DNA of 10,687 bases from a virus (taxonomy: Duplodnaviria; Heunggongvirae; Uroviricota; Caudoviricetes): positions 1-10,687 of IMG/VR virus record IMGVR_UViG_2537561977_000023; one strand, 5' to 3'. The position numbers and the translations under genes were made by a program. Positions 1 to 10,687 of this stretch are shown piece by piece; position 1 is the first letter of the stretch; each line of letters opens with the position of its first letter. The notes below the pieces were generated by a model that ran no database searches, had not been told where the DNA came from, and saw only the letters and a program-made list of their open reading frames with translations.

Positions 1-933
1 ACATTCCATTAATGCAATACTGAACTGGCTTACCTGAGTTGTATCAATTAGTGCATCTCTGTTTGAGTTAACGGAACCGGTAACAACATAACCTGACCTG
101 TCAGACCAGCCGGGACCATTCCATGTCTGAACAGATGACAGACCACCAAGGCGAATACCTGTAATAAACCTTGAGTTACATTCTGCCTGCGTATATGCGC
201 CAACATCTCTCGCTGATGGCTTGCGGGTTGTGGTGTAAAACTCTGACCAGTCAGCCTCAAATCCATAACCATCACGCGCTGAACGATAAAAAATACCGCC
301 GTTCTTATAATTCACACGGAACTGTACGGCAGGGCAACTCCCCGTATTCATATTGAAGTGGAGTATTAATGCTGTTGCGCCTTTGATATCTGCATCATAA
401 ACACCGCTATTCCAGTTCCAGCCAACAGCTTTATCATTTGCAACCCTGCTTCCTGTTTGCCCTAAAGCAAATGCAGGCTGCTGGTTTTTCGTGTTGTAGT
501 CTCGTCGCCAGCCAGGAGCGTAAGCATCACCATGATTAATATAAGTGAATTGAGCGTTAGTAATTCCGCCACCGCTGGACGTGCTCGGCGTGGTAACGCG
601 TATGGTCATTGCGCCGCGAGTGCCAATAACTTCCACCACAGCACCTGCAAGACAAATATTTCCGCAACCTGTATCTGTAATGACCTTATTATTTGCATAA
701 GCCCATGAGCCTTTGCACATCCAGTAAGGATGGTTAAATGCTCCCTGACTCTCCAGCCACGAAATAAATTGCGCGGTTGTCCAGACCTGACTATCGCCAC
801 CAATATTCAGCCATGAGCTATATGCGCGGCAGGCACCAATATTTTTGGTGAAGGTATCTTTCCCCGGAATATCTGCGCCGTTCTGGTTTTTCTGTAATGC
901 GCCAGAAGCCTGATTTACCGTTTCCTGTAAACC
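1..933 (-). CDS. Tail-fibre C-terminal variable-domain cassette (Mu Sv'/StfE-like), partial: continues beyond coordinate 1; no start codon, begins at the crossover site (silent orientation)
   Basis: Minus-strand frame with codons starting at coordinates divisible by 3 is open for 313 codons from 939 to the window edge. Translation NLGLQETVNQASGALQKNQNGADIPGKDTFTKNIGACRAYSSWLNIGGDSQVW...NGPGWSDRSGYVVTGSVNSNRDALIDTTQ is G/S/T/N/W/Y-rich like distal tail-fibre domains. Not in the ORF track because it has no in-window stop. Upstream stop TAA at 940-942 lies inside the crossover site. Confidence 0.7.
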
Positions 934-947
934 GAGGTTTTAGATAA
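922..947. other. gix/pix/cix-type 26-bp crossover site for the serine invertase (right-hand site of an invertible tail-fibre segment)
   Basis: TTCCTGTAAACC-GA-GGTTTTAGATAA: two imperfect inverted 12-bp half-sites around a central GA dinucleotide, 25/26 identical to the Mu gix sequence as I recall it (TTCCTGTAAACCGAGGTTTTGGATAA). Located 55 bp upstream of the invertase start, as in Mu/P1/e14. No second copy within the window. Confidence 0.7.
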
Positions 948-1001
948 TGGCCGTTTCCGGCCTGCATGGCATGATTTGCGCTTTTGGACGGGAGATTCAG
1001 C

Positions 1002-1588
1002 GTGCTGATTGGCTATGTAAGGGTATCAACAAATGACCAGAATACAGACCTGCAACGAAACGCTCTTGTTTGTGCAGGATGTGAACAAATATTTGAAGAT
1101 AAATTAAGCGGGACAAAGACAGACCGACCGGGATTAAAACGCGCTTTAAAGCGCCTTCAAAAAGGTGACACGCTGGTTGTCTGGAAACTGGATCGCCTCG
1201 GGCGAAGCATGAAACATCTGATTTCTCTCGTCGGGGAACTACGGGAGCGAGGAATTAATTTTCGCAGTCTGACCGACAGCATAGATACATCTTCTCCAAT
1301 GGGGCGTTTTTCTTCCACGTGATGGGTGCCCTGGCTGAAATGGAACGTGAATTAATTGTTGAACGTACACTGGCCGGACTGGCGGCAGCACGCGCACGGG
1401 GGCGCACAGGCGGACGTCGACCGAAGCTGACAAAAGAACAGCATGAGCAAATAGCAAGGCTGATCAAAAACGGGCACGACAGAAAACAACTGGCAATAAT
1501 TTACGGCATTGGTATATCGACGATTTATCGTTACCACCCCGCAGGAGAATCAATCGGAACAATAGAGAAGAGTCAGGAAACAAAATAA
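1002..1588 (+). pseudogene. Serine DNA invertase, Gin/Pin/Cin/Hin family; reading frame broken by a 1-base deficit in the T5 run at 1307-1311 (may be a sequencing artefact)
   Basis: GTG at 1002 preceded by GGAG (991-994). N-terminus [37 protein letters not shown]... is nearly identical to Gin as recalled, with the catalytic serine motif. ORFs 984..1322 and 1319..1588 are the two halves; adding one T gives ...[19 protein letters not shown]... and a protein of about 195 aa. Confidence 0.85.
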
Positions 1589-1616
1589 CCGCTAATCTGA
1601 CCATTAGCGGTTTTTG
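1588..1616. terminator. Bidirectional intrinsic terminator shared by the convergent invertase (+) and U (-) genes
   Basis: Perfect 9-bp stem ACCGCTAAT/ATTAGCGGT with 6-nt loop, followed by TTTTTGTGTT on the plus strand and TATTTTGTTT on the minus strand. Confidence 0.6.
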
Positions 1617-1623
1617 TGTTAAA

Positions 1624-2118
1624 TCAGAACAACCCTTTAACTGAACTGGCCGCGCTGTTAAGGGATGATGTTACCTTATCTTTGAAGCCGGACAGCATAT
1701 CGCTGAACGATGAGGATTGCAGGCGCTCCCGCAAATCCTCATCACAGCGTTCAAGAGTCAGTGAAAATTCTATCTTTTTCGCCTTACCGTAGCGATCAAA
1801 CTCGGAGCGGGTCGTATTCGTTTCGGTCAGGACATACATGCCGTAAATCTGCCCGACGCCATCAATCAGAGGCCAGGGTCGTCCTGTATACGCCTGCGTG
1901 GTCAGCAGCGACAGCGACACTTCGCCACCTGTAATTTCAGGATAAAGCACACCAGAAAGAACGATGCGCTCATCACCTGCACCGATATACTGCCAGCTTG
2001 CCGAACGGTTAACGCGTTCATTTTTCACATGCCGCCAGCTTTTGTTTTGCTGTAACTGCTGATGCGGCAATGTACGCAGCTCAAAAACAAACATGCCGTA
2101 GATCATCATCATGGCCAT
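1624..2118 (-). CDS. U: P2 gpU-like tail protein
   Basis: 164-aa ORF directly downstream of the tape measure gene, in the position of P2 U; ATG at 2118 or 2112 with GGAG upstream. Family assignment is by synteny and recalled similarity. Confidence 0.6.
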   Translation of the reverse strand: MAMMMIYGMFVFELRTLPHQQLQQNKSWRHVKNERVNRSASWQYIGAGDERIVLSGVLYPEITGGEVSLSLLTTQAYTGRPWPLIDGVGQIYGMYVLTETNTTRSEFDRYGKAKKIEFSLTLERCDEDLRERLQSSSFSDMLSGFKDKVTSSLNSAASSVKGLF

Positions 2119-2124
2119 GACTCC

Positions 2125-4966
2125 TCAATCTTTATCGTAAAAACTGCCACGCCCGGCACGGCCGCGCCGTTCCATTTCTGCCCTGACCATTTCACCGACC
2201 AGTTTCGCCAGTTCGCGGGGATTCTGCGTAACAACGTTATGCAGATGAACATGAATTTCACCACCAAATCCGGAGGCAACAGGCTCCCGGTTACGGGAAG
2301 TTACAGGAACTGATGCCACTGGAGAGCGTATGGCCTCCGCCACCGGGCGGGAGCTGGCCGCAACAACAGGGACCAGCGCCGGAGGCAGCGGAGCCGGGAC
2401 CACGGGTGTGATATTAATTGCGGGGGCAGGCTTACTGACCTGCGCAATCTTCCGCTCCTGCCACTCCCCACGAACAGCAAGTGCGCGGGGCAGGTTCTTA
2501 AAGACAATATCGCCGGGGCCAATGCGTTTTTTCGTCTCATCAACCAGCTTACCTGTGTTATCAGCAATTTTGCTGAGTCTGCGTAGCGTCCCGGTATTGC
2601 TGTCTGTGAGCGGTTTGTTGTCTTTGGGTTTATCACCTCCGGTGCCATTGCCATTTTCCACAGGCTTCGGCGGATTGATTTTCGCCAGGTCCCCCTGAAG
2701 CAAGGCAACCTTGTCCTGAAGAATGGCCGCACGCTGTGCGTCTTCGATTTTCTTGCGCGCCCTTTCCGCTTCATCCGGAAGGACGCCAAGTTTTTCAAGT
2801 ATCCACGCCAGCGTATCCAGTAGCATTTTTGCAGGTGTCAGAACAAGTTGTAACGCACCGCCAAGAACGTTACCGAATATCTCGCCAGCACTGGCACATT
2901 TATCCAGCGTTTCCTTGCTGGACTCCATCGGTGACAGCAGCGATTTAAACCAGTTAAAGACCTGAATAATCCCATCGCGCACGACATCAAAAACAGGGCC
3001 AAACCGTTCAAAGGTTTCGCGCAACGGGGTCAGCCTTTCCATAATCCCGCTGAACACCCCGGCAAAAAATGCCCTGATGGGATCCCAGTATTTCCAGATA
3101 AGAACGGCAGCTCCGGCAAGCGCAGCCACGATAAGACTAACCGGACTGAACAGCGCCCCGATAGCGCCACCAAGTAAAGAAACGGAACCCGTCACCATTC
3201 CCCATAATGCAGGCAGAACCCTGACAACATTCATTGATTCGGTCAGGAGAGAAAACCGAGACGCAACGTAGCCAGCTTCCCGTGAAGCACCCCAATAACC
3301 AGAGACAACGAACCAACCGTTGCTGTTGTCGCCAGCAGTGCGCCTCCCGCTATCAGTAACTGGCGCGTCAGTGCCGGGTGGGCCTGCGCCAGCGCCGTCA
3401 CCTTTGAGACAACCCGCGTGAGCCACTGCGTGACAGAACGCAGCGGACCGTCAACCAGATCACTGATGCGAATACGCAGACCTTCCCATGCACTGCCGAG
3501 TGATTTCAGGTTGCCATCAAGGTTATTGGCCATAACCTTTGCCGTGCGTTCTGCCTCACCGCGCGCGCCTTCAAGTTCTTTTCTCAGTTTGGCTAAGAAG
3601 CCGTCACCTGCCGCATCAACGAGGCCCATAAATGATGTGAAAGCCTCTTCTCCGGCAATGTCCTTAAAGAACGATACCCGGTCAACCTCCCCGTATTTGC
3701 GGGTGGCTTTATAGAGATCGGCCAGCACATTCTCCATCGGGCGCATTTTGCCTTTGGCGTCAGCAACTGACACCCCCAGCTCTTTCAGTGCTTCTGCCGC
3801 TGCCTTTGGCGGTGATGACAGATTGGCCAGGCTTTTACGCAACGCTGTACCCGCATCACTCCCCCTGATACCCATCTTCGCCAGCACGCCCGCCATCGCT
3901 GCGGCCTGCTCCAGCGATATTCCCAGCTTACCCGCCACCGGACCTGCATATTTCATGGTTTCGCCCAGTGCGCGAAGGTCAGTGTTGGTACGGGTAAACG
4001 CTGCGGTAAGTGTGTCACCGACCCGGTCCATCTGGTCAGCAGAGAGGCCGAACTGCGTCAGGATATTGGAACCAATATCCGCCGTCTCGCCGAGGTCCAT
4101 ACCGCCAGCCGTTGCCATGCTCAGCACGCCGGGAAGCGCAGCCTGAATGGCCTGCGGTGTGAAACCAGCCATTGCAAGAAATGCCTGTCCACTGGCGGCA
4201 TCGCCTGCGGTGAACTGCGTTTCAGAGCCAAGTTTTAACGCCTGCTCACGCAGCGCCTTAAACTGCGGGCTGTTTTTATCGATTCGCGTCAGTGCCTGAA
4301 CACGGGACATCTCTTTCCCGAACCCGATAGCGGGCTGCAAAAAACGCCCGGCAGCATAGCCGCCCGCTGCCGCCGCACCTGTTGCCAGCGCACCACCTGT
4401 TTTCAGTTTTCCCGCTGTTTCCTGCGCGCGTGAATACCGCTCACGCGCCTGCGTTACACGCGCAAGCGCCCGCCGTTCGCGTTCAAGCTGGTTGTTGTAT
4501 TGTCCGGTGCGTCTGATGGCCTGCTGGATGGTGTTATCGCTGCCTGTCAGGGAATGCCGTGGCGTTTCAGCTCTCCGCCAAGCTCCCGCATTTTCTGAAT
4601 TTCCCGTGTGCGCGATTCATTCAGGCGTTCAAGCCGGATGCTTAACTGCTGCATCAGCTTTTGTTGTTTTTCGCTGAGCACTGTACCCGTGCGTTGTAAC
4701 TGATTAAGGGCGTTAAGCTGGCGTCGTGCTTTCACGATCCCCGCATCCGCTTTACTGACAGCGTCACGGGCGCGCTCAAATGAACGCGCCTGACGCCCGA
4801 GATTTTTGATCGCCCCCTGCGTTCGCTGGATGGAGTCACCAAACTGCCCCATCAGGCGGCGGGCGTTTTCGGCAGGCCGGGTCAGCCTGTCAACGGCGCT
4901 GAAAGCGACCCGGATATCAAGAGTCTTCATTGTCTGCATTCCCGCTGCGAAGTGCCGCCCGCTCAC
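2125..4966 (-). pseudogene. T: Tail tape measure protein (P2 gpT-like), about 940 codons, split over three frames by two 1-base deficits (may be sequencing artefacts)
   Basis: ORFs 4547..4966, 3243..4340 and 2125..3426 are consecutive pieces of one gene. Coiled-coil-like N-terminal part, hydrophobic glycine-rich segments (LLIAGGALLATTATVGSLSLVIGVL; GAIGALFSPVSLIVAALAGAAVLIW) typical of tape measure proteins. Frame restored by adding one base at G3 4550-4552 and at A4 3252-3255 (plus-strand bases). Start uncertain: GTG 4966, ATG 4939 or ATG 4930. Confidence 0.75.
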
Positions 4967-5446
4967 GCCAGCTGACCACTTCGCCGGGCGTCATCATGAA
5001 GATTTCGGCGGGCGACCAGTTAAAAATAACGGCAATATCTGCCACAAAGTCTTCTATGTGCTCAAAGCACACAACCGTGATCAGGCTTCCGTCGCCTGTT
5101 CGTTCTTCCCGCCAGAGTCCGCACCGCTCAAAAAATTTACGGCAACCACACATAACTGAATAAAGTCACGGGATGCCATTTTTTTGATCGTCACTTCATC
5201 CAGTCGCGGTGATGTCACGCGTGACAGCAGCGTAAACATGGATTCCGCTTTCAGATTCAGCACATCAGACAGCGACAAATCTCGCAGAGATCCAGCCTGC
5301 TCAATAGCTCCGGTGATCTCCACATACGTGATTTTTTCGCCGCCTCGCTCAATTGGTTGGGTAAGTTTTACGCCACGCTCACTGGTTTCTTTCACAGTGT
5401 CAGCAACGACCGTGTTTTCGGTATCGATGTTTTTCGTCTCTTTCAT
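4917..5446 (-). CDS. Tail assembly chaperone E+E' fusion made by programmed -1 ribosomal frameshift (P2 E/E' type; analogous to lambda G/GT)
   Basis: The E frame (5446..5081) and the overlapping -1 frame (ORF 4917..5153) are joined at slippery heptamer T TTT TTG (minus strand; plus coordinates 5129-5135). Position immediately upstream of the tape measure gene, as expected. Confidence 0.65.
5081..5446 (-). CDS. E: Tail assembly chaperone E (P2 gpE-like), 121 aa
   Basis: ATG at 5446 with AAGGAG 5 nt upstream; located between the tube and tape measure genes; contains the slippery site near its 3' end. Confidence 0.7.
   Translation of the reverse strand: MKETKNIDTENTVVADTVKETSERGVKLTQPIERGGEKITYVEITGAIEQAGSLRDLSLSDVLNLKAESMFTLLSRVTSPRLDEVTIKKMASRDFIQLCVVAVNFLSGADSGGKNEQATEA
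5129..5135 (-). other. Slippery heptanucleotide T TTT TTG for the E/E' -1 programmed frameshift
   Basis: X XXY YYZ heptamer in the E zero frame (AAT TTT TTG); the -1 frame stays open for 70 further codons to the stop at 4917-4919. Confidence 0.6.
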
Positions 5447-5500
5447 CAGGAAACTCCTTTCAGTCAGAGGCGACGCACTGCGCCGCCTGCATATTACTTA

Positions 5501-6011
5501 TCAGCCAAGCCCGAGCGCGGAACGGATGCGATCGGGCACAATGTCCCTGCCGTCCTTCCGGTAAATGAAGTTCAGCAGGTCAATCTCCCACAACGGGCGA
5601 TCGTTAACACTCAGCTTGTAGTAGGTGTTTTTAATGGCGTAAGTGTGTGATGTGGCTTCGCCCTGTTTGGCTTCCCCCATATCAATTTCCGTCACACGTC
5701 CGCGCATTTCGACTTCATACAGGTCGCTTTCAGCGTCGGTGTAGTATTCACCCGCAAAACGCAGCAGCGTACCGTCAATCGTGCCGCCATACTTCAGGAA
5801 CAACTCACGAACTGCGCCCCCATGACAAAGCTCGCATCAAGCGCGGAGTCGTCCAGGCCGAGATCAATACTTACTGCCCCCATCATGCCACCACCCCGGT
5901 AGCTGTCGGTTTTGCGCGTCAGTTTAGGCAGAGTGACGGACGTCACCTTACCCACTTCGTTTTCACCATCCACAAACAGCGTAAAAAACGAAGATTTTTT
6001 GGTACAGCCAT
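5501..6011 (-). pseudogene. FII: Major tail tube protein (P2 gpFII-like), about 170 codons, interrupted by two 1-base deficits (may be sequencing artefacts)
   Basis: ATG at 6011 overlaps the sheath stop (TGATG) and has GGGAGG upstream. Pieces MAVPK / KSSFFTLFVDGENEVGKVTSVTLPKLTRKTDSYRGGGMMGAVSIDLGLDDSALDASFVMG / GAVRELFLKYGGTIDGTLLRFAGEYY...SALGLG. Frame restored by adding one base to T6 5995-6000 and to C5 5817-5821 (plus-strand runs). Confidence 0.7.
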
Positions 6012-7194
6012 CAGACACCTCCCAGCACCGCAAATGCGGGACCAAAGAATTCATCAGTAAACGTCTGGTAAAGCTCCATATCTTCCAGTGGCGGAACGGG
6101 CGTATATTTGTAGCGAATACGCACGCGCCCCTGACGTAAATCCGTGGTGCCGTTATCCACCACGTCATACCAGCACGACGCCCCAATCAGTTTCCCGGCA
6201 GTCACCAGTGAATCCAGTTTTGCCCTGATGGCACTGATAACATCCTTCACGTTCGCAGGCGTCAGTGGACTGTCGATGGTTTCAAACTGCGCTTCCGCAA
6301 TTGAATCAGCCAGCACCTGTGCGGTTCGGGTATACACCTCAAAGATGTAGGCGTTCGTTTCCGGTGTGCGGTTGCCCCAGAAGCGGAACCCGTTACGACG
6401 AATAATGGTCGTGATTTCTTTGTTGTTGAGGCTGTTGGCATCACTGTCTTCGGCCTGTAACGACCAGAACACATGCCTCGACATCCCCAGCACATTTTTA
6501 ACCGGAACGTTGGACAGTGATTTGTGCCATCCCTGCTCATGGTCAATGTACGCACGAAGGCCGCACGCACAGGCAGGCGCGGGGAACGTTTCGTTTTTGC
6601 CACTTTTCGGGTTCCAGGCGATGAAGTCCGGCCATAAGAGCATCACCTCACGTTCGTTGAATTTCTGGCGGTAGGTAATCGCCTCAGCCATCGTGTTACA
6701 GCCATGACATGAGGCATACACAAACGCGCGCAGTTTACCTGCAATCACGCACAGGGATTTTGCACCGCCTCCGTGTCCAGCTCCGGCGCGGCCAGAATAC
6801 GCGGACGGTATCCGATGCTTTCATCCTGCTCTGCAACAAGCAGCGCATACATCCCCGTATAGCTGCCGTCATCCTCAGAACCACCGATAACCAGTTGATC
6901 CTGCGTCTTTCCGTCTTCTTCTTTGTGTTCAGCCACGCGAACGACGATCACCTTTGTGCTCACCTGGTCTGCGATGGCCTTAAGCGCACGATAAAGCGTC
7001 CCCGTTGTCCCGCATTTTCCCAGCACGTCATTGACGCGGGTCAGCAGTGTGGGCTTGTTCAGCGGGAACAGCTTCGCGTCCGCATCATCCGCCGTTGCCA
7101 CGATACCGATAACGCTGGAATCAACATCGTTAATCGCTGTTACCAGGTCGGTATTTTCCGTAACACGGGCACCATGAAAACGAGTTTCACTCAT
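6011..7194 (-). pseudogene. FI: Tail sheath protein (P2 gpFI-like), about 394 codons, interrupted by one 1-base deficit (may be a sequencing artefact)
   Basis: ORFs 6745..7194 (N-terminal) and 6011..6748 (C-terminal) are one gene. Motifs ILAAPELDTEAVQ, GFRFWGNRT, YTRTAQV and YTPVPPLE match P2 sheath as recalled. ATG at 7194 with AAGGGG upstream. Frame restored by adding one base to T4 6758-6761 (plus strand). Confidence 0.8.
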
Positions 7195-7351
7195 AGCTTC
7201 AGCCCCTTGTATCCGTTAAATGATTCGGCAACAATCATCACCCACCACGCGCGTAATCTCACCCCTGCGCCGTTCTCCCGCCACGGCGACAACGAAAAGC
7301 AGTAACCCCCTCCGCACGCACATGCGACCATGCCGCACAGGGAGGGAGCAG

Positions 7352-8461
7352 ATGACCGACACCACCATGCAATTGCTCAGTCAGAGCACAGCCCCCGTGA
7401 AAATGCCGGATTTTGATATTCTCGCGGAGGGTAAAACGCTGTCCGGCGTGGCAGAGCGCCTGATGAGCCTGTCGCTGACCGACAACCGGGGATTTGAAGC
7501 GGACCAGCTCACCATCACGCTGGATGATGCGGATGGTCAGTTGCAGCTACCACCACGGGGCGCGCGCCTGACGGTTCTCATTGGCTGGAAAGGAGAACCA
7601 CTGACAGAAAAAGGCACTTATATTGTTGATGAAATCGCTCACGAAGGACCGCCGGACAGGCTGACTGTTTCAGCCAGAAGCGCAGATTTTCGGGATGAAT
7701 TTAACGTTAAACGTGAGGTGTCCTGGCATGATGTGACCGTTGAGCGTGTGGTATCCGCCATCGCTCACCGGTACGGTCTGAAACCGCAAATCAGCGAAAT
7801 GCTGATGGATATTGAAATCGACCACGCCGACCAGACCGAAGAAAGCGACATGTCCTTCCTTACGCGCATGGCGGAAATGCTGGGCGCAATCACTACGGTA
7901 AAAAGCGGTAATCTGTTATTCATCATGCCAGGCGGTGGCGTGAACGCACAGGGCCAGCCGTTGCCCTCGTTCGCCATCACGCGCAGCAGTGGCGATCGCC
8001 ATCAGTTCCGCATTGCTGACCGCGAAGCGTATACGGGGGTACGCGCTTACTGGCTTGATCTTAATTACGGGAAAAAGAAAAAAGTCAGCGTGAAACGCCG
8101 CAAACCGCCCAAGCCCAAAAAGGAGAAAAGCAGCAGCCGTGAAGGTGATTATATGGAAGGCGCGGAAGGCAATGTGTTTGTGTTACGCAAGACTTATCAG
8201 AACGAGCAGGCAGCAAGACGCGCAGCGGCGGCAAAGTGGCAGCAGCTACAACGCGGAGCCGCATCATTCTCCATCACGCTGGCGCGTGGACGTGCAGAAC
8301 TCTACCCCGAAATGCATGGCACGGTAACAGGATTTAAAAGCGAGATTGATAATCAGGACTGGATCATTGCAAAAGCCGGGCACACCATTGATAACAGCGG
8401 CTTTACCACACAGCTTGAGCTTGAGGCAAAAATCCCGGAATGGATAGCAGAAACAGAGTGA
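7352..8461 (+). CDS. D: P2 gpD-like tail protein (phage late control D family), 369 aa
   Basis: ATG at 7352 preceded by GGAGGGAG (7341-7348). The track's 7220 start adds a low-complexity N-terminal extension with no RBS and overlaps the FI promoter region, so 7352 is preferred. Confidence 0.75.
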   Translation: MTDTTMQLLSQSTAPVKMPDFDILAEGKTLSGVAERLMSLSLTDNRGFEADQLTITLDDADGQLQLPPRGARLTVLIGWKGEPLTEKGTYIVDEIAHEGPPDRLTVSARSADFRDEFNVKREVSWHDVTVERVVSAIAHRYGLKPQISEMLMDIEIDHADQTEESDMSFLTRMAEMLGAITTVKSGNLLFIMPGGGVNAQGQPLPSFAITRSSGDRHQFRIADREAYTGVRAYWLDLNYGKKKKVSVKRRKPPKPKKEKSSSREGDYMEGAEGNVFVLRKTYQNEQAARRAAAAKWQQLQRGAASFSITLARGRAELYPEMHGTVTGFKSEIDNQDWIIAKAGHTIDNSGFTTQLELEAKIPEWIAETE

Positions 8462-8503
8462 GCAACTTAGAATAGCGGCAACACCACGTTAAGGGAGGTC
8501 GCT

Positions 8504-8764
8504 ATGTTCCGTTGTCCGCTTTGTGGCGCATCTGCCCGTATCCGCACCAGTCGTCCGGAAAATGATTCAAACACCGTGCGGCAAAAGTATTACCAGTGTA
8601 ACAACCTGGAATGCGGCGTATGCTTCTCAACACTGGAAGCTTTCCATAAATTCACATCAAAACACGCCTCCGGCGTTCACTCTTCAGAAGGTATCCCGTG
8701 GCATGAACTGCCAGCTTCACACAGGGGAAACAATCAGATGAGTTTGCCTTTACCTCAGAATTAA
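8504..8764 (+). CDS. ogr: Ogr/Delta-family zinc-finger late-gene transcriptional activator, 86 aa
   Basis: MFRCPLCGASARIRTSR...YYQCNNLECGVCF has the CxxC...CxxxxC zinc-binding pattern and close similarity to P2 Ogr as recalled (MFHCPLC...HQCQNVNC). ATG at 8504 with AGGGAGG 5 nt upstream. Sits after D, as in P2. Confidence 0.8.
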   Translation: MFRCPLCGASARIRTSRPENDSNTVRQKYYQCNNLECGVCFSTLEAFHKFTSKHASGVHSSEGIPWHELPASHRGNNQMSLPLPQN

Positions 8765-8852
8765 CAGGCAGAATTGCCGGAGTAACAAAAAAGCGATAGA
8801 TTACGTGCGGGTGCCTTTCGGCTGATGGTCGGAGGGAATACCCGAAGGCCAG

Positions 8853-9089
8853 ATGTGGAAAGGCCCCGGAAAACATTTTTGTTTAACCGAGGCCCTAACA
8901 CTTCTTACCTTCGCAAGTAGAAGGTTAGCGCCTCTCCTCTCAGGAGACAAGCGTTATGACGCAAATTCCGTTAAAAACCCTGTTACTTTGCATAACTGCG
9001 GTAGCGATAATCTGGATCCTCCACACATCACCGTGCGAGTTACGATTCAGGTTTGCTGGCACGGAAATTGCGGCATTCTTACTATGTAA
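8853..9089 (+). CDS. mok-like overlapping reading frame of the hok locus (translational coupling frame), 78 aa
   Basis: ORF begins 103 nt upstream of the hok ATG and ends 7 nt before the hok stop in another frame, the arrangement known for mok/hok. Its own sequence is not distinctive. Confidence 0.4.
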   Translation: MWKGPGKHFCLTEALTLLTFASRRLAPLLSGDKRYDANSVKNPVTLHNCGSDNLDPPHITVRVTIQVCWHGNCGILTM

Positions 9090-9096
9090 TAAGTAA
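8956..9096 (+). CDS. Hok/Gef-family type I toxin (small membrane peptide), 46 aa; absent from ORF track
   Basis: Translation MTQIPLKTLLLCITAVAIIWILHTSPCELRFRFAGTEIAAFLLCNK: N-terminal hydrophobic helix followed by the conserved C-E-L-R-F-R ... E-(V/I)-A-A-F core seen in Hok, HokB and Gef as recalled. AGGAG at 8942-8946, 9 nt before the ATG. Confidence 0.75.
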   Translation: MTQIPLKTLLLCITAVAIIWILHTSPCELRFRFAGTEIAAFLLCNK

Positions 9097-9184
9097 GATA
9101 ACCGCGACGGGGGAGTAATCCCCCGTCAATCGGTTGCTAAGGTTGGTCGAAGCGGCACCCTATCTCACTGGCATGAACAACAAA

Positions 9185-9216
9185 CCCGCAGCGTAAAAAC
9201 TGCGGGTTTTCTTTTT
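9185..9216 (+). terminator. Intrinsic terminator, plus-strand orientation (candidate 3' end of the hok transcript)
   Basis: Stem CCCGCAG/CTGCGGG with 8-nt loop, followed by TTTTCTTTTT. Confidence 0.55.
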
Positions 9217-9248
9217 GGTTCCCTCATTCATGAGGACACCAAAAACAA

Positions 9249-9278
9249 AGCCCACAGCATAGAATCTGTGGGCTTTTT
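9249..9278. terminator. Intrinsic terminator hairpin, possibly bidirectional
   Basis: Perfect 9-bp stem AGCCCACAG/CTGTGGGCT with 8-nt loop; TTTTT follows on the plus strand and TTGTTTTTGG on the minus strand. Confidence 0.55.
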
Positions 9279-9352
9279 GCATTCAAAGATGGACGTTATA
9301 TGGACACTTAAAAATAAAATCCATTTATTTTCAAATAATTAAACTTCTGCTT

Positions 9353-9374
9353 AAAGCGCCCGCAGGCGCTTTTT
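9353..9374. terminator. Hairpin immediately 3' of serS (likely serS terminator; T-run is stronger on the plus strand)
   Basis: AAAGCGCC-CGCA-GGCGCTTT perfect 8-bp stem with 4-nt loop, about 20 nt downstream of the serS stop (9395-9397). Confidence 0.5.
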
Positions 9375-9394
9375 AGATTCAGAAAAATTGGGTA

Positions 9395-10687
<1,293 letters not shown>

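Follow-up and report, generated by a model that had tools for sequence, protein, structure and literature searches.

The record of phage P2 places FI, FII, E, T, U, and D on one strand, followed by ogr, as an initial annotation of the present locus had correctly stated. In the window analysed here, which comprises 10,687 nucleotides and corresponds to the first 10687 nt of the draft contig ADUP01000041.1, the genes U, T, E/E', FII, and FI face away from D and ogr. This raises the question of whether the order is native or the product of a rearrangement or a misassembly, and of how D would be transcribed in such a position. The analysis described below makes it highly probable that the opposite orientation of FI-FII-E/E'-T-U and D-ogr is the native, fixed order of a P2-related clade, in which D appears to have a late promoter of its own.

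Gene layout of the window

Gene identities were established from open reading frames, Pfam matches, tblastn searches with P88 proteins, and gene calls on the source contig. They confirmed the strands and identities originally given for U, T, E/E', FII, and FI (minus, 1624-7194) and for the invertase, D, and ogr (plus). Pfam matches and near-identical phages left no ambiguity in the annotation. The window covers the right-hand end of a prophage of the P88-like type (Xuanwuvirus-type, Peduoviridae), which is integrated beside the host gene serS (9395-10687, minus strand; ORF and gene calls). The prophage ends at about 9216-9230, and homology to P88 stops at 9216.

The contig starts within a partial alternative tail-fibre C-terminal segment of a Mu G-type invertible region (1-721, minus strand), which is 93-96% identical to the invertible-segment fibre genes of Mu, D108, and P7 and to P88 gp42. 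A gix-like crossover site of this fibre segment, TTTCCTGTAAACCGAGGTTTTAGATA, was located at 921-946 on the plus strand, at a match to the Mu 'G-segment boundary', and is followed by the plus-strand gene for a Gin/Pin-type serine DNA invertase (1002-1588; Pfam Resolvase and HTH_7). At 1587-1612, a hairpin followed by a T run was matched by a terminator scan on both strands; the predicted RNA structures have folding energies of -15.7 and -16.1 kcal/mol (z-scores -4.05 and -3.74). This hairpin is a candidate for a shared bidirectional terminator of the convergent invertase and FI-U transcripts. The previously reported distance of 8 nt between U and the invertase terminator is roughly right; the U stop codon (1624-1626) and the hairpin are separated by 11 nt, or by 6 nt if the T run is included.

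The minus-strand block begins with the tail protein gene U (1624-2112; Pfam Phage_P2_GpU, E = 8e-39; 99% identity to P88 U) and the tape measure gene T (2125-4930; Pfam PhageMin_Tail). The tail assembly chaperone genes E (5081-5446) and E' (from 4917) occupy 4917-5446, were assigned from Phage_P2_GpE gene calls and the P2 E/E' annotation, and contain the slippery run AAATTTTTTG. They are followed by the tail tube gene FII (5501-6011; Pfam Phage_tube on both of its fragments) and the tail sheath gene FI (6011-7194; Pfam Gp18_domIII_N, Phage_sheath_1, and Phage_sheath_1C). FI and D diverge from a control region of 157 bp, exactly as annotated before (7195-7351).

On the plus strand, D (baseplate hub/late control, 7352-8461; Pfam Phage_GPD) is an unbroken gene of 369 codons whose product is 48% identical to P2 D and occurs as an identical protein on 22 contigs. 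The gene for an ogr-type zinc-finger late activator of 86 aa (8504-8764, plus strand; CX2C-X24-CX4C; Pfam Ogr_Delta, E = 5e-14) starts 42 nt downstream of D. The region thus carries P2-type FI, FII, E, T, U, and D proteins with an Ogr_Delta activator next to D, as in a Peduoviridae tail and late-gene module. A hok/gef-family toxin ORF of 46 aa (8956-9096, plus strand), considered prophage cargo, was recognised from its translation and from a HOK_GEF match on the equivalent ORF in near-identical genomes; its counterpart in P88 is annotated as MokW-like. In the P88 record, ogr itself is unannotated. An Rfam scan of the window returned no RNA family.

Distribution of the inverted order among relatives

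Alignment of the window with P88 (NC_026014) gave a single collinear piece (6-9216, 86% of the window) with 95.7% identity, a value that describes the prophage part inside the window and not whole-genome identity. The window has both the high nucleotide identity and the P88 gene order of Xuanwuvirus, and phiSM, P884B11, 500465-2, and others align with it collinearly as well. The inverted order was found in the ICTV genera Xuanwuvirus (P88, P884B11, and phiSM), Reginaelenavirus, Reipivirus, and Senquatrovirus. Besides P88, phiSM, and SEN4/5, the phages with this order include Klebsiella phages of two further genera. Plaque formation has been reported for P88 (PMC5285337), phiSM (PMC6456863), and SEN4/5, the latter with contractile tails in electron microscopy (PMC5261728). 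The lineage with the inverted order is already described and includes working phages. The earlier proposal of a native order in an undescribed lineage was correct regarding the native order but not regarding the lineage, which consists of described ICTV genera.

Among complete E. coli genomes, 385 contain 80% or more of the window in collinear form. If the FI/D junction is taken as the marker, roughly one in four complete E. coli genomes has a member of the family; the junction itself is unbroken in 1358 of the 1376 E. coli genomes that have it, with 95-99% identity. When 80 Enterobacterales loci drawn from about 30 genera were compared, all 60 loci with a D protein at least 61% identical to P88 D were inverted, and all 19 loci with an identity of 53% or less were P2-collinear; the clade loci are homologous and, hence, do not represent independent observations. 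The window groups with the inverted loci, having divergent FI and D genes and a D protein at least about 60% identical to that of P88. It does not show the co-directional FI-through-D run of a P2-type F operon (Peduovirus order), since FI-U run on the minus strand, opposite to the plus-strand gene D. The collinear FI-D order was observed in P2 and eight other Peduoviridae genera.

Most likely, one ancient inversion, reaching from the PF promoter through U, defines the clade, a reading that is based on ranking by D identity and not on a rooted tree. The clade with the split F operon comprises four or more phage genera, with hosts from about 30 genera, and the orientation of FI relative to D offers a simple synapomorphy separating the P88/SEN4-type clade from other Peduoviridae. 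A search of the literature on Xuanwuvirus and Ogr late promoters yielded no paper discussing the inversion, and the searchable papers on P88, phiSM, and SEN4/5 mention neither the inversion nor a PP/PO-style FI/D promoter.

Predicted promoters in the FI/D spacer

It had been suggested that the inverted order would cut D off from its late promoter. This claim is unsupported, the spacer containing an Ogr-type activator site and a -10-like hexamer facing D. The predicted activator site, GTTCT-N12-ACAAC, spans 7272-7293 (centre 7282.5), and its TCT-N12-ACA core at 7274-7291 has a left half-site one mismatch away from the canonical TGT of the published consensus TGT-N12-ACA (PMC3931495). In dyad form and length, it equals the P2 PO/PP, PF, and PV sites annotated in NC_001895. 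The canonical form is present in the spacers of Kp4871-3 and SEN5, and the P/O spacer of P88 has the same TCT-N12-ACA variant as the window. The site became apparent only when the spacer was compared with the P2 sites annotated in NC_001895 and with the P/O spacer of P88. An exact search of the window for TGT-N12-ACA missed the spacer and returned a single match, at 6456 within FI, a result at or below chance, and the looser pattern GTTNT-N13-CAA was too degenerate genome-wide, with 10 matches in P88 versus 3.6 expected.

Predicted -10 hexamers flank the site on both sides, 32 nt from its edges. On the minus strand, GATGAT (7234-7239) would belong to a leftward late promoter (PF) with a predicted start near 7227; on the plus strand, GACCAT (7326-7331) would belong to a rightward late promoter for D (PD) with a predicted start near 7338, after which the Shine-Dalgarno sequence of D, GGGAGGGAG, is found at 7340-7348. 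In the P2 PP/PO region, the centre of the site lies 55.5 nt from each annotated transcription start, and the -10 elements are 32 nt off the site edges (NC_001895). The spacer in the window repeats this layout on both arms, with a central dyad between divergent late genes (one mismatch) and -10 hexamers at P2 spacing on both sides.

This motif geometry is conserved in about 30 genera. A site score of at least 9/10 was obtained for 47 of the 60 clade spacers versus 1.8% of control windows. The xAxxAT hexamer was present on the FI side in 57 of the 60 clade loci and on the D side in 43, compared with about 5% of control windows for the latter, and the site together with both -10 hexamers occurred in 37 of the 60 inverted loci versus none of 11433 control windows. 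Among collinear relatives, the FI-side -10 was found in 12 of 14 loci and a hexamer on the opposite arm in one of 14.

These observations suggest that D is probably served by its own late promoter and is not orphaned. We also consider it reasonably likely that the FI/D spacer acts as another bidirectional Ogr-dependent promoter in the style of PP/PO, derived from the PF site that was moved by the inversion, with the D-side -10 gained later. Ogr binding at 7272-7293 and transcription starts at the predicted positions are what we infer from the sequence. According to this proposal, an ancient inversion would have brought the dyad-symmetric activator site of PF immediately in front of D, and a D-side -10 hexamer would have been acquired afterward. 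The single central site would then serve both divergent promoters, the leftward one (-10 at 7239-7234) transcribing FI through U from near 7227 and the rightward one (-10 at 7326-7331) transcribing D and probably ogr from near 7338. Translation of D would depend on its own strong ribosome-binding site, replacing the U-D start/stop overlap of P2. The arrangement probably works because the inversion placed a symmetric Ogr-type site next to D, and if the spacer is indeed a bidirectional promoter, splitting of the P2 F operon could have been tolerated and then fixed in the clade.

Alternatively, the order might be native and D expressed otherwise, either from a constitutive or differently regulated promoter in the spacer or from a start elsewhere. 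We regard this as unlikely, even though the left half-site departs from TGT, a strict D-side xAxxAT hexamer is missing in 17 of the 60 clade loci, and the promoter model is built on motif geometry and conservation. The D-side hexamer is placed at exactly the spacing of the mapped P2 late promoters, and its frequency in the clade (43/60) stands against that in control windows (about 5%) and in collinear relatives (1/14). Furthermore, a scan for sigma-70 consensus promoters found none in the spacer; the single match in the window, at 8324-8353 within D, compares with 8.1 expected by chance and could be used as a lead for an ogr promoter, being evidence for nothing. The predicted -10 hexamers are weak, and the predicted D leader measures about 14 nt. 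Weak -10 elements and the missing sigma-70 match are expected because the promoters would be activator-dependent, and they do not constitute positive evidence. The initial annotation had named closely related functional phages with the same order and an independent promoter for D as able to overturn its view of a rearrangement: functional relatives with the same order exist, and an independent D promoter is indicated by sequence evidence only.

Alternative origins of the order and comparison with known systems

Seven 1-nt deletions, mostly in homopolymers, were detected in the window, and the resulting ORF splits in FI, FII, T, and the invertase gene had been missed before. They are located at about 28 in the tail-fibre segment, at 1306 in the invertase gene (T6 to T5), at 3251 and 4552 in T, which is divided into three ORFs, at 5816 and 5982 in homopolymers of FII, and at 6762 in FI. 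Gene calls show unbroken genes for the invertase in near-identical genomes (195 aa) and for T (935 aa), FII (170 aa), and FI (394 aa) in relatives. The split ORFs are most likely sequencing errors, since the deletions are mostly homopolymeric and do not occur in seven prophage copies with 99.5-99.9% identity, and since the host gene ftsK is also split on ADUP01000041.1. They call for caution regarding homopolymer errors in this draft assembly.

A recent inversion in one prophage, rendering it defective and separating D from its late promoter, would account for an order unlike that of P2 and for the interrupted FI, FII, T, and invertase genes, but it is very improbable: the interruptions look like sequencing errors, a conserved activator site and a -10 hexamer face D, and the same order is present in the plaque-forming phages P88, phiSM, and SEN4/5 and in all 60 clade members from about 30 genera. 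Regarding gene order, this explanation was rejected, the order being fixed in a clade that includes functional phages.

There is hardly any chance that the FI-U block is a second segment flipped by the adjacent Gin-type invertase in the manner of the tail-fibre G segment. Although the invertase gene abuts the block on the left and a gix-like site lies at 921-946, no second gix-like site was detected in the window, where the next best match had at least 10 mismatches in 26 positions and was no better than shuffled sequence. The comparison of 1560-1660 with 7170-7380 revealed no inverted repeats, in agreement with the earlier remark that none were obvious at the junctions. The block has the same orientation in all genomes examined (1358 of 1376 E. 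coli junctions unbroken, and every clade locus), including SEN5 and the RIVM_C039205 prophage, from which the invertase is absent. An assembly artefact that misoriented the block in a draft contig with homopolymer errors and a start inside an invertible segment is practically inconceivable and was ruled out by independent complete genomes, as both junctions are internal to the contig and identical junctions are found in complete chromosomes (such as CP065611.1, 99.8% identity), in independently sequenced phage genomes, and unbroken in 1358 E. coli genomes.

An inverted order of this kind is no reason to suspect rearrangement, misassembly, or prophage decay, the layout being standard for a common prophage family. 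It may also show, as an example from nature, how an operon with a symmetric activator site can be split by inversion and still be co-regulated.

Comparison with the Mu G, P1 C, and e14 P segments (inverted by Gin, Cin, and Pin) shows that the window starts inside a segment of this kind, with its gix-like site and invertase gene. The FI-U block lies outside this system, having neither gix-type sites at both ends nor both orientations among genomes.

P88 and phiSM share the order and strands of the window, from the invertible fibre segment and the invertase through U-T-E'-E-FII-FI (minus) to D, ogr, and hok (plus). Nucleotide identity is 95.7% with P88 and 93.6% with phiSM, and the 157-bp spacer is nearly identical. 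The window differs from P88 by a 9-nt insertion in D and from both phages by one substitution beside the activator site, at 7294, and by the seven 1-nt deletions, which are probably sequencing errors.

The P2 F operon (PF: FI FII E E' T U D, then ogr) matches the window in its complement of tail genes and in the type of its activator (Ogr/Delta), with protein identities of 33-49% to the P88 lineage (36% for Ogr), and its activator site is about 70-80 nt upstream of FI, as here. All P2 F genes are on one strand, with the D start overlapping the U stop, whereas here FI-U face away from D, and a separate ribosome-binding site and a putative promoter precede D. The closest parallel to the spacer is P2 PP/PO, which likewise has a central dyad between divergent late operons, -10 elements 32 nt off its edges, and starts about 55.5 nt from its centre. 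However, P2 PP/PO has the half-site TGT instead of TCT and controls packaging and head genes, while the spacer stands between the tail genes FI-U and D-ogr; the function of PP/PO is mapped, that of the spacer predicted.

Gene order and single-base deletions

The layout of the window was supported by an ORF listing, Pfam scans, and tblastn searches with P88 proteins. The invertase gene (1002-1588) lies on the plus strand and is followed on the minus strand by the tail genes U (1624-2112), T (2125-4930), E'/E (4917-5446), FII (5501-6011), and FI (6011-7194). A spacer of exactly 157 bp (7195-7351) separates the divergent genes FI and D; D (7352-8461, with the ribosome-binding site GGGAGGGAG ahead of its start at 7352) and ogr (8504-8764) are on the plus strand, and host serS (9395-10687) forms the downstream end. 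In P2, FI-FII-E-T-U-D-ogr are all on one strand, whereas here the FI-U block is opposite to D and ogr, so that the initial annotation described the block accurately as inverted relative to P2.

The window corresponds to nucleotides 1-10687 of draft contig ADUP01000041.1 (assembly GCA_000188815.2). Prophage copies that match it at 99.5-99.9% identity over the shared region are present in seven other genomes, one of them the complete chromosome CP065611.1, and the length differences consist of single-base deletions found in the window only. Seven were counted against CP065611.1 (at 28, 1306, 3251, 4552, 5816, 5982, and 6762), six of them within the part shared with shorter contigs. Most fall within homopolymers (T6 to T5, A5 to A4, C6 to C5, A7 to A6), and together they split the fibre segment, the invertase (195 aa when intact in relatives), T (twice; 935 aa), FII (twice; 170 aa), and FI (394 aa). 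The host ftsK is likewise split further along the contig. Together, the homopolymer context, the intact near-identical relatives, and the split ftsK suggest that the deletions are probably sequencing errors rather than pseudogene decay.

Several further features were observed. A slippery run, AAATTTTTTG, at the E/E' overlap (5131-5140, minus strand) fits the -1 programmed frameshift that is conserved in P2-type tail chaperones. D carries a 9-nt insertion relative to P88 (8108-8122) in a lysine/proline-rich low-complexity stretch (KPPKPKKEK), with the frame kept. Between ogr and the prophage end lies a 46-aa hok/gef-family toxin ORF (8956-9096), whose counterpart in near-identical genomes is called with HOK_GEF and, according to the P88 annotation, is MokW-like; an Rfam scan of the window gave no match, for example to a Sok-type antisense RNA. 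Two adjacent terminator-like hairpins (9178-9227 and 9230-9279) separate the prophage from the 3' end of serS. Homology to P88 stops within this region, at 9216, and the pair probably represents the attachment-site junction, with one phage-side and one host-side terminator.

Distribution of the inverted order

Alignment to related P2-like phages, as proposed in the initial annotation, yielded a single collinear alignment with P88 over positions 6-9216 (95.7% identity). Further collinear alignments were obtained with Xuanwuvirus P884B11, Citrobacter phage phiSM, Escherichia phages 500465-2, 520873, 503458, and PhiR44_2, and phage Chuche, and the annotated strands of P88 and these phages match those of the window. 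The same gene order, lacking any invertase, was found in Salmonella phage SEN4/5 (Senquatrovirus), and it also occurs in Klebsiella phages belonging to Reginaelenavirus and Reipivirus. The collinear P2 order is instead present in Peduovirus, Felsduovirus, Kapieceevirus, Aptresvirus, Citexvirus, Arsyunavirus, Baylorvirus, and Duonihilunusvirus, the last being collinear although an invertase sits between its fibre genes and FI.

In an Enterobacterales scan using one genome per species (80 loci, about 30 genera), orientation was called for 79 loci. The FI-U block was opposite to D in all 60 loci whose D is at least 61% identical to P88 D, and the order was collinear in all 19 loci whose D is at most 53% identical. 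Because orientation splits cleanly along this D-similarity ranking, the sequences argue for one old, clade-defining inversion. The contig NZ_JBQPOM010000071.1 is labelled as the Firmicute 'Vagococcus sp. WN89Y' but carries this enterobacterial prophage module, with a D 99% identical to P88 D; the assembly is probably contaminated or mislabelled.

Among the three readings considered initially, that of a native order in an undescribed lineage held for the order and failed for the lineage, which is already described and classified. A defective rearrangement is refuted by the 60/60 clade loci and by the occurrence of this order in functional phages: P88, obtained by induction from E. coli K88, is plaque-forming (PMC5285337), phiSM is spontaneously released, forms plaques, and lysogenises K-12 (PMC6456863), and SEN4/5 is a plaque-forming phage whose contractile tails were seen by electron microscopy (PMC5261728). 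Misassembly is refuted by the FI/spacer/D junction, intact in 1358 of the 1376 complete E. coli genomes having it; 385 complete E. coli genomes are collinear with the window over at least 80% of its length. The gene order is already visible in many public annotated phage genomes and is of low novelty, and no comment on it was found in the three cited papers.

Invertase and left junction

The contig begins part-way through an invertible tail-fibre segment of the Mu G / P7 C type (1-946; 93-96% identical to Mu, D108, SfMu, and P7), and mixed orientations or inverted repeats of this segment probably caused the contig break. A single gix-like site (921-946) was found at its edge, and a search of the window for a second yielded none. 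An inverted-repeat search of the block ends confirmed the earlier impression that the breakpoints lack such repeats, and orientation of the block was invariant among the E. coli junction set and the 60 clade loci examined. These three results exclude the FI-U block as an invertase switch.

Between the convergent invertase and U lies a hairpin (1587-1612) with folding energies of -15.7 and -16.1 kcal/mol (z-scores near -4). T runs follow it on both strands, and it resembles a bidirectional terminator shared by the two genes. The invertase/U junction is common to just 621 of the 1589 matching E. coli genomes, and in the remainder homology starts at about 1618, just past the hairpin, as it does for prophages that lack the invertase. 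A serine acetyltransferase is encoded here in one E. coli prophage. The left junction is a hot spot for cargo insertion; at the corresponding position, between G and FI, P2 carries the non-essential gene Z/fun.

Predicted bidirectional promoter in the FI/D spacer

Annotated activator sites and transcription starts of the P2 record (NC_001895) served as the reference for spacing. In the divergent late promoter pair PP/PO, the two mapped starts (3016 and 3127) each lie 55.5 nt from the centre (3071.5) of the site GTTGT-N13-CATC, and 32 nt separate either edge of this site from the beginning of a -10 hexamer. The FI/D spacer has a predicted site and two predicted -10 hexamers in the same layout. 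The candidate Ogr-type site GTTCTCCCGCCACGGCGACAAC (7272-7293) reads TCT-N12-ACA, one mismatch from the activator consensus TGT-N12-ACA (PMC3931495). The predicted minus-strand hexamer GATGAT (7239-7234), 32 nt to its left, would place a start near 7227 and give FI a leader of about 33 nt, and the plus-strand GACCAT (7326-7331), 32 nt to its right, would place a start near 7338 with a leader of about 14 nt bearing the D ribosome-binding site. The earlier suggestion that D has lost its late control is unsupported, given this predicted site and D-side hexamer.

Spacers of relatives lend support to this model. Among the 60 loci with the inverted order, which comprise 48 distinct site/arm combinations, 47 have a site scoring at least 9 of 10; xAxxAT, at a distance of 32-34 nt, was present on the FI side of 57 loci and on the D side of 43. 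The three elements coincided in 37/60 loci vs 0/11433 control windows from the same loci. In collinear relatives with a site upstream of FI, a -10 was present on the FI side in 12/14 and on the opposite side in 1/14; likewise, the P2 promoter of FI (PF) has none on the arm opposite FI.

The putative site in the P88 P/O spacer (14214-14235) has the same TCT variant and the same following AAAAG as the window site, so that both putative late activator sites of this lineage differ from the canonical TGT-N12-ACA. The lineage's Ogr has the spacing CX2C-X24-CX4C, vs X22 in P2, and site and activator may have co-varied. The Kp4871-3 and SEN5 spacers carry the canonical form, with different N12 and flanks.

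The most economical reading of these sequences is that inversion of the FI-U block carried PF along, which would have brought its symmetric activator site back to back with D; a D-side -10 would then have completed a bidirectional late promoter. The site, starts, and activation in this PF/PD model are predictions, and the putative promoter is the only mildly new element here. A plus-strand scan from D to ogr found no terminator, and ogr may therefore be read from the D-side promoter as well; in P2, ogr is read from PF.
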